DNA of 64,000 nt, taken from contig CAZRED010000001.1 of NCBI GenBank assembly GCA_964599405.1, positions 218,323 through 282,322 on the forward strand, read 5' to 3'. A program made the position numbers and the translations under genes. This document shows positions 4,006 through 63,523 of the stretch, piece after piece. This DNA comes from an uncultured Candidatus Saccharibacteria bacterium. Lineage in GTDB: Bacteria; Patescibacteriota; UBA1384; 2-12-FULL-50-11. The notes beneath the pieces were generated by a model. It was not told where the DNA came from. It did not search any database and was given only the letters and a program-made list of their open reading frames with translations. Position 1 is the stretch's first letter. Every line of letters begins with the position of its first letter.

Positions 4006-5172
4006 GTGAGACACCGAAAAGATCGTGAGTACTACGAGAATTTCTACGACAAGCTAACCGTTCATTTTGCTCGGAACGATATGGATTCCTTTTTCAGGCT
4101 CCGCGACGAGCTGAAAAAGAAGCTGCCGAAAAAAGAGTTTGAAGCACAAAGCACGCTGTTCTGGCTCGATAAGCTTTGCGACATGCTGGTTATGTGGCCA
4201 TGTGGTGAGCGCTGGGAAAAACGGGGCAGAGAGATCGACAGCATGATGCTAGCCGACGGAAATAAAGACCGCCAACTGGAAAACGCCCGGCTTCGACAGG
4301 AACCTGTTTGCAAACACTGCGGCAAGATTGGTTTACGTATCACCAGTAAGTATTTGATGCATCGAAACGGCTACTCACAAGACGTGCCAGAAGAAGTTTT
4401 GTTCATGCTCGACTGCCCAGCTTGCGAAAAACGAAGCAGTTACTGGGAAAGCGGCGAGTCATTTGAGAGACAGTCGACCCTCTGTCCAAAATGCCAAAGC
4501 GAGATGAAAGAACGCGACAGTCGCAAAGGCAAGATAATCACTACAACCTACACCTGCTCCAAATGCAAACATTCGTATAAAACGGCGCTCGATCTTCGTT
4601 CAAAGCCAGAAGAACCGGATCCGGATTTCGAGAAGCATAAAGCGATTTTCTGTTTTGATAATAAAACCGGTTTGGAGTATTTGCAGCGGCGCAACAACTG
4701 GAAAGCGTTTCAAGAGATGATGGATAGGGAAAAAGAGAAGGAGCAAAACGAGGCGCTGTACGGCTTAGTCGCGAAGATCAAGCGATTAAAAATTGCCGAA
4801 CTGATTGAGCTAATGGAAAAAGAGCTCAAGAAAGTCGAGTTTATTGAGGTTCGCTTTGAGAAGCCGGAGATTGGCAAAGACGTCATCGTTTCGTTTAGCT
4901 GCTTAGACGGAGATTCCAAACGCAGCGCTTATGACAGCGAAAAAATCCTAAAACGAACCGTTAAGAAAACATTACACCCAACCAACTGGCGACTGATGAC
5001 CGAAGGTGTCAGTTACCGTCTTGGCTACTTAACCGGCCGAGTCCGAGCCTACGAAAACGAAGAAGATTTGGTAAGGCTGATCGAAAAAGATCAGCCAGAG
5101 CTCAAGCGGGAGAAAACGGCGAATGATCCTGATCAACTTTTAGACAAAGACGGAAACATTATTACTTTGTAA
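4006..5172 (+). CDS. hypothetical zinc-ribbon protein (four CxxC pairs)
   Basis: 388-aa ORF with CKHCGK...CPACEK and CPKCQS...CSKCKH, i.e. two predicted zinc ribbons, and a charged coiled-coil-like C-terminal half. Its 3' end overlaps the convergent DGR RT gene by 11 nt. Confidence 0.6.
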   Translation: MRHRKDREYYENFYDKLTVHFARNDMDSFFRLRDELKKKLPKKEFEAQSTLFWLDKLCDMLVMWPCGERWEKRGREIDSMMLADGNKDRQLENARLRQEPVCKHCGKIGLRITSKYLMHRNGYSQDVPEEVLFMLDCPACEKRSSYWESGESFERQSTLCPKCQSEMKERDSRKGKIITTTYTCSKCKHSYKTALDLRSKPEEPDPDFEKHKAIFCFDNKTGLEYLQRRNNWKAFQEMMDREKEKEQNEALYGLVAKIKRLKIAELIELMEKELKKVEFIEVRFEKPEIGKDVIVSFSCLDGDSKRSAYDSEKILKRTVKKTLHPTNWRLMTEGVSYRLGYLTGRVRAYENEEDLVRLIEKDQPELKREKTANDPDQLLDKDGNIITL

Positions 5173-6184
5173 GCGAGGCGGTGATCCGAGACTGAATTTT
5201 CTTTTTGAGCTTGTGGGTATCGGCGTGCTGTAAGACGCCGTGATACGACGCCAGCGACTGGCTAAGGTCGTATGTGGTGATCGACTTATCTTTGTATTCA
5301 CTTAGCCGCTGGTCAATCTTCTTGATGACTCGTTGTTTCGTTTTAGTTCGCAACTGCTTGCGGTACGGCAAGATAACGTAGCCTAAAAAGTCAGCGCCCT
5401 GCCGATATTTTCTGATCGATACTTTGTTTGGGTGTAACTCGAGCGATAGCTCCTTGGTTAAAAATGCCCTAACCGGCTCCAAGAGATTTATTAAATAGTC
5501 TTCACTCTCGGCGATAACGACAAAGTCGTCGGTGTAGCGAGCGTAATATTTTACGCCCAAAGTTTGTTTCACAAATTGATCAAACTCGTTCATGTATATG
5601 TTAGCAAAGAGCTGGCTGGTTAAGTTACCGATCGGCATACCGTCCGGAAAACTCCCGATGATTCGCTCCAGAAGCCAGAGGGCGTCCTCGTCTTTAATCC
5701 GTTTAGCGAAAGTTCGAATGATTAGCTCGTGGTCAACACTTCGAAAGAACTTTTTGATGTCACATTTGAGAACAAAACAGGGTCTGGTGTAATTATGACT
5801 AACCTGTCGGATCATTTTATCGACCGCCAAAACTCCTCGGTGAGTACCTTTGCCGACTCGGCAGGAGAATGACGTTGAAATAAACCCGGATTCGAAAATT
5901 GGATTGAGGATATTAAATAGGGCTTGGTGGACGACTCGATCACGCACCTCGGCCTTACTGATAAGCCGCTGTTTCGGGTCTTGGATGTAAAAGGTGTGAT
6001 ATTTGCCGTGCTTATACCGACGGCTTTTTAAGTCTCGGTGAAGCTGAAAAAGGTTTGGTTCGAGCAACCACTCAAACTTCTGAACATCTTTACGGCTCCG
6101 CTTACCTTTACGGAATTTTTCCCACGCCAAAAAGAGGTTTTCGACCGAAATGATTGCTTCGAACAGATTTTCGTATATTTTCAT
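5162..6184 (-). CDS. diversity-generating retroelement (DGR) reverse transcriptase
   Basis: 340 aa. N-terminus MKIYENLFEAIISVENLFLAWEKFRKGKR is typical of DGR RTs. Motif IGNLTSQ (the DGR-specific I/LGxxxSQ replacing group-II QG). Catalytic YTDD box (ARYTDDFVV). RDRVVHQAL motif. Confidence 0.9.
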   Translation of the reverse strand: MKIYENLFEAIISVENLFLAWEKFRKGKRSRKDVQKFEWLLEPNLFQLHRDLKSRRYKHGKYHTFYIQDPKQRLISKAEVRDRVVHQALFNILNPIFESGFISTSFSCRVGKGTHRGVLAVDKMIRQVSHNYTRPCFVLKCDIKKFFRSVDHELIIRTFAKRIKDEDALWLLERIIGSFPDGMPIGNLTSQLFANIYMNEFDQFVKQTLGVKYYARYTDDFVVIAESEDYLINLLEPVRAFLTKELSLELHPNKVSIRKYRQGADFLGYVILPYRKQLRTKTKQRVIKKIDQRLSEYKDKSITTYDLSQSLASYHGVLQHADTHKLKKKIQSRITASLTK

Positions 6185-6658
6185 ATGATGGAGACACTTG
6201 GTTTACCGATCTTTCAAAAGTCGTACGATCTTTATAAATCCTTCTACGGCTGTCGTGACCACGTCGCCAAACAAGACCGGCATACCGTTTGGCAGCGCTG
6301 CGAAAACCTAGTTCTCGATCTACTCCAGTCGATTATTCAGGCTAGCCAGCAAGATAAGGCGGATAAGCTGATAACACTCGAGAAAGCGAGCGTCCAGCTC
6401 AACATGCTTCGCATTTTATTACGGCTCACTAAAGACCTGAAAGTCATCGATCCCAAGAAATACCTAATGCTCGAGGAGCAAATCGACGAGGTTGGTCGAA
6501 TGTTGGGCGGTTGGCTCAGATCGACTAAGATCCCCCCCCCCCCGACTATTTGGGTTCGGACGCGCGTTAGTATGCTGTCTAAACTAAGATTGAGAGATAG
6601 TGCCGAGAGGCCGACAACCCCAAGTTGGAGTTGCGGTTACCATCCGAGTTCCTGTTGA
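6185..6658 (+). CDS. avd: DGR accessory variability determinant (Avd); true C-terminus probably near 6531-6590, the ORF reads through a C12 tract into the TR
   Basis: MMETLGLP... The C-terminal helix ...LEEQIDEVGRMLGGWLRS closely mirrors the Bordetella phage BPP-1 bAvd ...IAEVGRILGSWIAR, with four-helix-bundle family spacing. The start ATG at 6185 abuts the RT start codon (complement of 6182-6184). The part of the listed ORF before 6185 lies inside the RT gene and is discounted. Confidence 0.75.
   Translation: MMETLGLPIFQKSYDLYKSFYGCRDHVAKQDRHTVWQRCENLVLDLLQSIIQASQQDKADKLITLEKASVQLNMLRILLRLTKDLKVIDPKKYLMLEEQIDEVGRMLGGWLRSTKIPPPPTIWVRTRVSMLSKLRLRDSAERPTTPSWSCGYHPSSC
6532..6543. repeat. C12 homopolymer (G12 on the minus strand) at the avd 3' end, 59 bp from the TR
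   Basis: Twelve consecutive C read directly from the sequence. A tract of plus or minus 1 would end the Avd frame at about 6571 or 6590 instead of 6658. Confidence 0.9.
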
Positions 6659-6716
6659 CGTTGAACCCATTGGCATTGAAGTTGCCAACGTTGACGCGGT
6701 TGCCATTCGAATCGAT
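6603..6716 (-). repeat. DGR template repeat (TR), sense on the minus strand
   Basis: 114-bp near-identical copy of 7154..7267. All 17 mismatches are T in this copy on the plus strand (A on the minus strand) versus A/C/G in the other copy. It is AAC-codon rich on the minus strand and has a GC-rich 3' end (GGGGTTGTCGGCCTCTCGG, IMH-like). Confidence 0.9.
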
Positions 6717-6994
6717 ATTTGCCCATTTTCTTCTGGTTTCACCGAAAGTTGAGCCTTACCGTCGGATTCTATCTTGAACCCTGCGGCTAAAGAATTATCG
6801 AATCGACCTATTTACTCTTCTTTCTGAATTTTATTTGGGAGCAGCGTAGAAGCATCTCCACCAAAAATGAGCAAGAACTTTCTCTCAAATCTTTCTCGCA
6901 CGCTGCCGCAACCGGTGGCTGCTGACATTCTGGCGAACTGAAGAATGAGTGCCCCGCGAGACCCAACCATGGCCGGATCTACACTAGCAAGACG

Positions 6995-7010
6995 CCTGCA
7001 TTATACCTGT
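6995..7010 (-). promoter_or_regulatory. candidate promoter -10 (CAGGTATAAT on the minus strand) positioned to drive a TR-containing transcript
   Basis: The minus strand reads CCTAACAGGTATAATGC. It shares CAGGTATAAT with the target-gene promoter element at 8110-8119. The -35 is weak. Confidence 0.3.
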
Positions 7011-7074
7011 TAGGATGTCAGCCGTACAGGGTTAAACAACGAAAAATGTGGCGAGCGCTTCGCGCTCTTAGTAT

Positions 7075-7102
7075 AAAAAAGCCCCGGCGGAAAACCGCCG
7101 GG
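7075..7102 (-). terminator. rho-independent terminator downstream of the DGR target gene
   Basis: Stem CCCGGCGG / loop AAAA / CCGCCGGG, followed on the minus strand by a T6 tract. Confidence 0.7.
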
Positions 7103-7144
7103 AGTTCAAGGGGGACAAAAGGCTCAAGAGCCAATGTCCAAAGT

Positions 7145-8002
7145 TCAGAAGTTCCGAGAGGCCGACAACCCCAAGTAGGAGTAGCGGAAACCATCCGAGT
7201 ACCCGCGGACGCCGAACCCATAGGCATCGAAGCAGCCAACGTAGACGCGGTTGCCATCCGAAACGATGTCGGAGCAGCGAACGTAGACGTTCTCGAACAG
7301 GCGCTCTCCCGTATTCAGGAAGTGTCCCATGACCGTGTACGTCATAACGCAAGCTGTCGGAGTCGTCTCGTCCTTCAGGAGGGCTTGCTGCTCGTCCCAA
7401 GACTTGCTGGTCGAGTTATCGACCGGCTGCTTGCGGATGAGGTACCAGCGGACTTCGACTTTGGTCTTCTTGGCGAAGGCTTGAGTCTCATACCACCCGC
7501 CGGTCGGCGTGTAGAAGAGCTTGCCCTTCTTGGCTCGGCCAGCCTTGGTCCGAACTTGCAGGAGCGTCATCGGATAGCCGGCAACGAGCACGTGTGTGTC
7601 TTTGCAAGCTTCGAGAACTTCCTTAGTGAACGGAACCGTAGCGAGAGCGTCGAGCTGATCCTGGGTCCACTTAGCACCGAGGTGCTTCGCGGCTTCTTCG
7701 AGACCGAAGAAGTTCGTTCCCATGATCGTCTTGGCTTCGTTCTGGCTGTCGGTCAGCTCGATGGCGGCAACAGGCGGAGCCTGCTGGCCGGCCTTCTTCA
7801 AGGCCTTACGAGCAATCCGATCCATCTCGTTAGCGAGCTGGTCATAGCCCAGAAAGGCTTGAAAGCCCGGGCCGTCCAAACCGTTACGGTGGACAAAATC
7901 GCGCATGACCTGGTCGCACTTGTGAAACTGGTCGTCAGTGACTGGAGTAGATGGAGGGGTCTGTGTTTGTGGCATCAGGCGTCTCCTCGTGTTTATGCCC
8001 AC
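7145..8002 (-). CDS. DGR target protein with C-terminal CLec/FGE-like variable region; no signal peptide evident
   Basis: 285-aa ORF containing the VR. The C-terminal GFRYSY/ VRGYSDG pattern resembles C-type-lectin-fold DGR targets. The opposite-strand 354-aa ORF (7046..8110) is R/L/A/G-rich antisense. Confidence 0.8.
   Translation of the reverse strand: MGINTRRRLMPQTQTPPSTPVTDDQFHKCDQVMRDFVHRNGLDGPGFQAFLGYDQLANEMDRIARKALKKAGQQAPPVAAIELTDSQNEAKTIMGTNFFGLEEAAKHLGAKWTQDQLDALATVPFTKEVLEACKDTHVLVAGYPMTLLQVRTKAGRAKKGKLFYTPTGGWYETQAFAKKTKVEVRWYLIRKQPVDNSTSKSWDEQQALLKDETTPTACVMTYTVMGHFLNTGERLFENVYVRCSDIVSDGNRVYVGCFDAYGFGVRGYSDGFRYSYLGLSASRNF
7154..7267 (-). repeat. DGR variable repeat (VR) in the 3' end of the target gene
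   Basis: Counterpart of the TR. It encodes the last ~40 aa of the target protein (...VYVRCSDIVSDGNRVYVGCFDAYGFGVRGYSDGFRYSYLGLSASR). Differences from the TR occur exclusively at TR adenines. Confidence 0.9.
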
Positions 8003-63341: not shown

Positions 63342-63423
63342 GGAGGGTTGGCAGAATGGTAATGCACTAGTCTTGAAAACTAGCGGGCGCAAGCCCTTGT
63401 AGGTTCGAGCCCTACACCCTCCG
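63342..63423 (+). tRNA. tRNA-Ser (anticodon UGA), class II with long variable arm
   Basis: Manual fold: acceptor GGAGGGT/ACCCTCC, anticodon stem CTAGT/ACTAG, loop CTTGAAA, variable arm CGGGCGCAAGCCC, T-arm GTAGG-TTCGAGC-CCTAC. Confidence 0.8.
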
Positions 63424-63450: not shown

Positions 63451-63523
63451 GCGCTCGTAGCTCAGCGGATAGAGCGTTCGGTTGCGGTCCGAAAGGTCAC
63501 AGGTTCGATTCCTGTCGAGCGCG
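63451..63523 (+). tRNA. tRNA-Arg (anticodon reads GCG)
   Basis: Manual fold: acceptor GCGCTCG/CGAGCGC, D-stem GCTC/GAGC, anticodon stem TTCGG/CCGAA, loop TTGCGGT, T-arm ACAGG-TTCGATT-CCTGT. Confidence 0.7.

Follow-up and report, generated by a model that had tools for sequence, protein, structure and literature searches.

In this study, we describe a genuine simple-sequence repeat, conserved within lineages and prone to replication slippage, at the junction between avd and the TR-proximal spacer of a DGR. Our main reading, to which we give a probability of about 0.4, is that this is a contingency-type repeat that would toggle the C-terminus of Avd and thereby modulate DGR activity. The window, by which we mean the whole 64-kb stretch of DNA that was analysed, carries the repeat as a C12 homopolymer at positions 6532-6543 on the plus, avd-sense strand (G12 on the minus strand, which is that of the TR RNA and the RT), and pure runs of C stand at the homologous position of 12 further, distinct related sequences. 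A homopolymer scan found it to be the only run of at least 8 bases in the window; the longest remaining runs are 5 for C and 6 for G, and an i.i.d. or first-order Markov composition predicts about 0.003-0.004 runs of at least 12 bases. A run of 12 nt had been called exceptional in the initial annotation of this DNA, and with no second homopolymer of 8 or more bases in 64 kb and about 0.004 expected, that judgement is borne out. As written, C12 produces an avd ORF of 157 aa that ends at 6658, within the antisense TR, while C13 or C10 would end avd at 6571 or 6568 and C11 or C14 at 6586 or 6589. This agrees with the frame arithmetic of the initial annotation, which had C12 reading through to 6658 and one-base changes terminating at these places (the last given there as about 6590). 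On the minus strand, the G12 run lies 59 nt 3′ of position 6603, the last base on which TR and VR agree, matching the 59 nt reported earlier; from the BLAST repeat end at 6599 the distance is 55 nt. The TR-proximal spacer had also been named as a region of DGR RNA elements, correctly so by comparison with the Bordetella phage system.

The window locus is a complete DGR, with every part but avd on the minus strand, in the order target/VR, TR, inverted avd and RT of a CPR-type DGR. Its reverse transcriptase (340 aa; 5162-6184, minus strand) matches RVT_1 with E = 4e-23 and has the IGNLTSQ motif in its translation. The best relative of this RT, at 82% identity, is encoded on a Berkelbacteria MAG contig, where the neighbouring protein is annotated as a DGR Avd, and the closest relatives are Candidate Phyla Radiation (CPR; Patescibacteria) MAGs. 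The avd ORF as written (157 aa; 6185-6658, plus strand) matches Pfam bAvd (PF22296, E = 9e-21, residues 9-113) as well as NCBIfam NF033474, DivGenRetAVD, at 86.8 bits against a cutoff of 80. The bAvd domain ends at Lys115 (codon 6527-6529) and is followed by an isoleucine, by PPPP from the tract and by a read-through tail of 37 aa whose codons extend antisense into the TR; the C12 tract thus begins one codon past the complete domain. The start codons of RT and avd stand back to back on opposite strands (CAT then ATG, 6182-6187), with zero intergenic bases, and an inverted avd, divergent from and abutting or overlapping with the RT gene, was found in 86/86 related loci with an Avd match. Because the start codons adjoin in this way, promoter and RBS of each gene lie within the coding sequence of the other, or else the RT is expressed from the TR transcript through antisense avd.

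The template repeat (TR; 6603-6716, minus strand) and the variable repeat (VR; 7154-7267, minus strand), the only VR in the window, were delimited by alignment to each other and form a pair of 118 nt in which 17/18 mismatches fall at TR adenines. The VR occupies the 3′ end of the target gene (285 aa; 7145-8002, minus strand), and its end lies 6 nt ahead of the stop codon of the target ORF (8002-7145), which returned no match in a Pfam or NCBIfam profile search. Just 3′ of the VR and the target stop is a nested inverted repeat read from the sequence (GGACAUUGGCUCUUGAGCCUUUUGUCC; 7113-7139, minus strand), and a terminator scan placed an intrinsic-terminator-like hairpin with a U run after the target gene (7082-7103, minus strand). 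A DGR-type RT, A-biased TR/VR differences, a 3′ VR followed by an inverted repeat, and Avd, the four criteria for a DGR, are all present. In composition, the target-gene region (7001-8000) has a G+C of 0.567 against 0.40-0.48 nearby, and G+C is lower over the first ~11 kb of the window than over the remainder (~0.50-0.55). A 388-aa ORF with weak zinc-ribbon matches (4006-5172, plus strand) is convergent with the RT gene, with which it shares 11 nt at the RT 3′ end (5162-5172), and two adjacent tRNA genes (63342-63423 and 63451-63523, plus strand) are the only above-threshold Rfam matches in the window.

Our survey of the tract in related DGRs comprised 13 distinct sequences including the window, with run lengths of 6, 7, 8, 9, 9, 9, 10, 10, 11, 11, 12, 12 and 12. 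They come from the window clade (Berkelbacteria-type, with Avd proteins 73-91% identical), from a Peregrinibacteria/Peribacteria-type clade and from one further lineage, and the run follows directly after the conserved Avd end. Within the window clade, the tract is C12 in the window and in L134, C11 in L138, C10 in L164, C9 in L135/L136, C8 in L001 and C6 in L137; in the Peregrinibacteria/Peribacteria-type clade it is C11 in L160, C10 in L030, C9 in L161 and likewise in L162, and C7 in L163; the further lineage, L139, has C12. By source run, the tract is C10 in SRR21686416, C9 in SRR21686417 and SRR21686418, C12 in SRR31850038 and C6 in SRR22388053. No other G/C run at a tract-bearing locus comes near it in length, the runner-up measuring 4-6. 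The initial annotation had considered a tract that lacked conservation in homologous DGRs; across these 13 sequences, the position is conserved and the length is variable. Pro-run tails (PP, PPP or PPPP) were present in 54/201 retrieved Avds, and 110/201 had the canonical Avd end, 1-2 residues after ...GRMLGGWIKSTK (GGWIKSTK). In about 75 other relatives the run is absent, and an avd stop codon and a strong stem-loop occupy the homologous place. On an Avd tree, which is weak given the shortness of the protein, the tract lineages fall in one neighbourhood with the canonical L018 and L021 interleaved, which implies more than one gain or loss of the tract.

The prolines of the run are all encoded by CCC, whereas at these loci the RT and Avd bodies use CCC for 39/161 prolines (24%). 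The constraint is thus on the nucleotide homopolymer and not on the peptide, and selection for a poly-proline peptide is ruled out by the same codon usage together with the differing downstream frames. One Peregrinibacteria-type sub-lineage (P0084, P0087, P0089, P0196-P0207) has Avd tails ending in a variable (RE)n, from LRERE to LRERERERERE, the product of a (GA)n microsatellite of varying length that forms the complement of the post-TR CU run; in this sub-lineage the Pro run is interrupted (SPSP, LPPS). The locus with the shortest Peregrinibacteria-type tract (L163, C7; GCA_016196295.1, JACPYA010000052.1) has an unusually high share of non-adenine TR/VR mismatches (9/25), and although its source record has no RT gene call, tblastn detects a full-length RT; the DGR may be decaying or mis-annotated.

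The length of the tract differs between very close relatives. Two sister samples, L135 (SRR21686417) and L164 (SRR21686416), align over 4,483 bp with C9 versus C10 as the sole difference, and the extra C turns the 132-aa Avd of L135 (tail GLFRFRAALIPSC) into a 156-aa read-through Avd in L164 that is similar to that of the window. Likewise, clusters of Avds at least 90% identical contain all three tail frames on identical bodies; in one such cluster the tails are GTPPPQSNY and GTPPPPEQLLS, each followed by a stop, and GTPPPRAIIELKEKRRKCR.... A slipped-strand variable site had been proposed from the window by itself, and the fixed position, the varying length and the single-C difference over 4.5 kb lend support to that proposal. 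Given the frequency of such differences, the number of independent sources and their short-read origin, real slippage is the better reading of these cases, though sequencing error could explain some of them. The C run encodes proline in each frame, so that in every state a Pro run and then one of three tails follow the complete bAvd domain. Past the domain, the tails predicted in silico for the window have 13, 19 or 41 residues depending on the frame, with the bAvd domain itself unchanged. Avd ORFs of these lineages are, as a result of the tract, routinely called at varying length (115 to ~217 aa), which annotation pipelines should expect.

In the window clade, one of the three frames (frame A) reads x-LFRFRAAL-IPS-F (xLFRFRAALIPSF) and stops within the conserved CUUAR motif. 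Frame A and its stop are intact in the DNA of L001, L134, L135, L137 and L138, including two loci where the tract puts them out of frame (L134, C12; L137, C6), and an intact short-tail frame and stop at the DNA level are common to all relatives with the tract. With C11 or C14, the window would read RLFGFGRALVCCLN and stop at the homologous place. The C12 of the window is therefore a read-through state, one base off the conserved frame, and represents either an alternative state or a miscount by a single base. Of the 54 P-run tails, 26 were classed as short, 9 as intermediate and 19 as long read-through; short tails exceed the one-in-three expectation of a random frame, in counts that are not phylogenetically independent. 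A-biased TR/VR differences were present in every tract-bearing locus with both repeats.

How might such a tract act on a DGR? Constant hypermutation would destroy a working variant. Slippage by single bases swaps the C-terminal tail of Avd among three alternatives, and the C12 state of the window adds an extension of 41 residues encoded antisense to the TR. Tails could become more heterogeneous still if ribosomes slipped by +1 on CCC-C codons. Under our main reading, five long or odd tails, placed at the end of the Avd pentamer that accommodates the TR RNA, would lower or block cDNA synthesis, and sub-populations would flip between diversifying and non-diversifying states. The experimental hint of such an effect comes from a fusion experiment in the Bordetella system, in which a pentameric protein was joined to the C-terminus of Avd: the resulting bRT-Avd copied a TR-truncated RNA and not the intact DGR RNA, an outcome that the authors put down to the bulk of the TR being directed towards this end of the Avd barrel (bioRxiv 10.1101/2023.10.23.563531). 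Five 41-residue tails might interfere as the Avd-Fae fusion does. Set against this, Fae is a folded pentamer of 170 aa, whereas the tails described here have 13-41 aa and are probably disordered. Moreover, a frameshift does least damage where the tract lies, beyond the entire conserved domain, and a true on/off switch ought to sit close to the 5′ end. Past A-mutagenesis has left its marks in loci of all three frames, so that no frame is demonstrably "off", and some of the length differences in public assemblies, along with the C12 of the window, could be sequencing miscounts. Finally, a nucleotide-level need for a G run in the TR RNA would explain the purity and conservation of the tract as well. 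In its most specific form, our main reading describes a phase-variable DGR in which poly-C switches Avd between permissive short tails and obstructive read-through tails, lineages alternate between diversifying and freezing, and the poly-G of the RNA may double in priming or in Avd-binding architecture; we put this fuller version forward as a tentative proposal.

A different reading places the function in the RNA. The G run of the TR transcript could form the 3′ strand of a wobble helix (G:C and G:U pairs) with the polypyrimidine motif that follows the TR, and this helix would replace the canonical stem-loop of relatives. We consider this a possibility, if a somewhat doubtful one, and it is not exclusive of the modulator reading. 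A short CUCUC-like polypyrimidine motif directly 3′ of the TR is family-wide; in the window it is CACUAUCUCUC (6592-6602, minus strand), the candidate pairing partner of the G run, and between the two lies an imperfect inner stem-loop (GUUUAGACAGC..GCGCGUCCGAAC; 6554-6584, minus strand) that appears in MFE and centroid folds as a weak structure without statistical support. In canonical relatives, a spacer of 45-60 nt separates the TR from the avd stop, and a stem of at least 8 bp was found in 48/64 loci. These stems have 8-20 bp, most commonly 12-14, with loops mostly of 4-5 nt, start 10-20 nt 3′ of the TR, and are followed by a T-rich tail in about half of the canonical relatives. Neither this hairpin nor the canonical stop codon was found in any of the tract-bearing loci. 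A stem-loop just downstream of the TR binds Avd in the cryo-EM structure of the Bordetella phage DGR RNA, and such an Avd-binding stem-loop was predicted in 207/278 DGRs, CPR included (Handa et al., bioRxiv 10.1101/2023.10.23.563531). We infer by analogy that the stem-loop of the canonical relatives corresponds to it. The element is defined by a stem of ~9-11 bp with a short loop, and what the window has instead is the imperfect 9-bp stem-loop, with z-scores of +0.26 and +1.1. As modelled, the helix of CU motif and G run could be a substitute for the Avd-binding stem-loop.

Several observations are in keeping with such a helix. When the spacer is folded in isolation, the MFE or centroid structure of the window and of L001, L134, L138, L139, L030, L160 and L162 joins the CU run to the G run, and the spacer of L139 consists of pyrimidines followed by G12 and nothing else. 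A member of the window clade without a G run (L140/L141; JGI Ga0209542_10014450 and C687J35174_10004710) has, at the exact place, the Watson-Crick complement UUGAAGGCGAUAGUG of its post-TR motif, with about 13 bp; the motif itself reads CACUAUCUCUCAA in these sequences. In L005, the 3′ arm of a canonical hairpin is G6 paired to CUCUCC, a plausible origin of the run, and the sequences suggest that A-to-G drift preserving G:U pairs, followed by slippage, produced it. As G:U pairs are needed, the helix would be limited to the RT-sense strand of the TR RNA; the avd-sense strand would require C:A pairs. The order of CU strand, inner stem-loop and G strand also mirrors that of TR118-129, Avd stem-loop and Sp47-56 in Bordetella. 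Several pairing registers are open to any run of at least about 6 G, by which slippage and the accompanying changes of the Avd tail would be tolerated as side effects.

Other observations weaken the case for the helix. The initial annotation had directed attention to the RNA structure of the minus-strand spacer, and in our models the pairing of CU motif and G run is predicted for the isolated spacer; dinucleotide shuffles, however, fold just as well (z from -0.67 to +1.1), and we reject thermodynamic support for any spacer fold on these non-significant z-scores. With RNAfold in a 230-nt context, the G run pairs with the antisense of the LGGW codons of Avd in five loci, with another downstream C-rich stretch in L134 and with C-rich stretches inside the TR in L030, and in L139 it is split between upstream and downstream partners. 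Covariation is impossible to show for a homopolymer. In canonical loci, a permutation test for locus-specific complementarity of the flanks around the hairpin gave only a weak signal (p = 0.03, 0.6 kcal/mol). The CU run of the window clade has 6-7 nt, against G runs of up to 12.

The RNA upstream of the TR has a family-wide element of its own. An RT-16-like motif lies directly upstream of the TR (6721-6873, minus strand) and scored 23.9 bits with Rfam RF03019, for which the gathering score is 50; among 14 relatives searched, none reached this threshold, and in the DGR region of the window no Rfam family attained its gathering score. In the ~150 nt that precede the TR, the window shares with the RT-16 consensus the AUAAAAUxCAG and CGGUG blocks as well as a closing helix, and a CUGCUCCC-R-AAUAAAAUxCAG motif followed by a purine run stands 60-130 nt upstream of the TR in 37/67 related loci. 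The motif being family-wide, RT-16-like RNAs may represent the 5′ portion of the RNAs of CPR DGRs. The conserved CUCCC upstream of the TR is part of this motif and occurs also in loci without a G run. An analogue of the Bordetella stop duplex, in which the G run would pair with C-rich sequence ahead of the TR, is ruled out for the window, which has no complementary stretch there.

It is also conceivable, although we regard it as unlikely, that the tract is a non-functional by-product: a purine-rich hairpin arm that drifted to a G run and was expanded by slippage, with slippage keeping the run homogeneous and the tail changes being harmless. Each of the three tail frames does occur, as does a range of lengths from 6 to 12, the tail peptides are poorly conserved in the Peregrinibacteria-type clade, and no structural signal is significant; in the sub-lineage with (RE)n tails, the Pro run is broken up and the neighbouring (GA)n repeat varies too. 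Yet a pure run is kept at one site across lineages that are ~55% identical in RT and Avd and whose spacers are otherwise unalignable, and an unconstrained run of 9-12 nt should long since carry interruptions. Such a by-product also leaves unexplained that the canonical hairpin is absent from all tract-bearing loci, that a tract-less sister lineage built a replacement helix, and that the frame-A stop codon has been kept in loci where it is out of frame.

It is highly improbable that the run of the window arose as a poly-G/C read artefact or by a mis-join: 12-base homopolymers are error-prone, in long reads especially, and with C12 one base from the conserved frame a +1 miscount of a true C11 is conceivable, but the tract recurs at the same codon in independent assemblies (NCBI, ENA, JGI and Logan) and its flanks are collinear with those of relatives on both sides, so that at most the count of 12 versus 11 could be wrong. 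This recurrence rules out an assembly chimera or poly-G read artefact, and the sequencing or assembly soft spot that had been the alternative in the initial annotation is, in the sense of a one-off assembly artefact, excluded by the presence of the tract in homologous DGRs, the count of 12 versus 11 aside. Further candidates were rejected on more specific grounds. An intramolecular G-quadruplex needs at least 11 G in a single run even for two layers, of which relatives with 6-10 G are incapable, and is no general explanation. Terminator function at the tract is contradicted by the absence of a hairpin with U run on both strands, and a scan of 6185-6720 detected no intrinsic (bidirectional) terminator between the convergent avd and TR. 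No flanking inverted repeats that would make avd an invertible segment were found, and its orientation is fixed in 86/86 relatives. By reasoning, non-templated addition of C by the RT is not the origin of the run either, which on the RNA lies 3′ of the TR, beyond the start of the cDNA.

To our knowledge, the regulation of DGRs is poorly understood and few switches have been described, and we know of no biochemical study of the very large CPR branch of DGR diversity. Should our main reading be true, a slippage-prone repeat in the accessory gene of many CPR DGRs would provide a simple, heritable and reversible control, with one hypermutation device nested within another. If instead the G run is an RNA element, it would represent a degenerate, register-tolerant replacement of the Avd-binding stem-loop and would bear on how CPR DGR RNAs recruit RT-Avd. 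A literature search on DGR or avd together with homopolymer or phase variation returned no paper linking them, and we found no published description of a conserved, length-variable homopolymer at the avd/TR junction.

The cassette itself belongs to a known type. Architecture B3 makes up 90% of the CPR DGR set (Wu et al. 2018, PMC5758913), and we take the arrangement of the window to be B3 on the strength of the description in that paper, and hence to be known and not new: as there described, B3 shares with the window a target gene whose VR is at its 3′ end, a TR in the same orientation, avd and a DGR RT, with an order and orientation of avd and TR unlike those of the Bordetella phage. What sets the window and its sublineages apart from their canonical B3 relatives is the junction, where the relatives end avd 1-2 codons after GGWIKSTK and have a strong stem-loop, while the former have a homopolymer in an extended avd ORF. 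In the spacer of the BPP-1 DGR RNA, the Avd-binding stem-loop spans Sp3-33, the primer Sp47-56 pairs with TR118-129 and the stop duplex involves Sp59-70 (PMC6182149; bioRxiv 10.1101/2023.10.23.563531). Our tract similarly falls within the ~70 nt that follow the TR in the TR RNA, and the modelled CU:G helix, if formed, would enclose an inner stem-loop as the template:primer duplex of BPP-1 encloses the Avd-binding stem-loop. The two spacers differ in that there is no sequence similarity between them and a G run is not described in BPP-1; furthermore, the spacer of the window runs on into antisense avd and not straight into the RT gene, and the pairing of its G run is a prediction. The tract occupies the place of the Avd-binding stem-loop and falls outside the definition of that element. 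The RT-16 RNA motif (Weinberg et al. 2017, PMC5737381) excludes the homopolymer, and the resemblance to it is confined to the region upstream of the TR, at a sub-threshold score.

In anatomy and polymorphism, the tract resembles the poly-G/C contingency loci of Neisseria, Haemophilus, Campylobacter and Mycobacterium (PMC5084427; PMC8437040; PMC11898584). Common to both are a pure G/C run of at least 7 bases in an ORF, single-base differences between near-identical strains, and the resulting frame shifts. Of the properties by which contingency loci are recognized, an uninterrupted homopolymer of at least ~7 bases inside an ORF is found in the window itself, as C12 in avd, and length polymorphism between close relatives is found among its relatives, in the L135/L164 pair and in the Avd clusters of at least 90% identity. 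The tract differs from these loci in its host, which is of the CPR, in that switching and phenotype are predictions here, and in the gene concerned, which encodes a retroelement accessory factor and not a surface or restriction-modification function. It differs also in its position, for here the run stands at the extreme 3′ end of the gene, where a change in length swaps the tail of the protein rather than truncating it.
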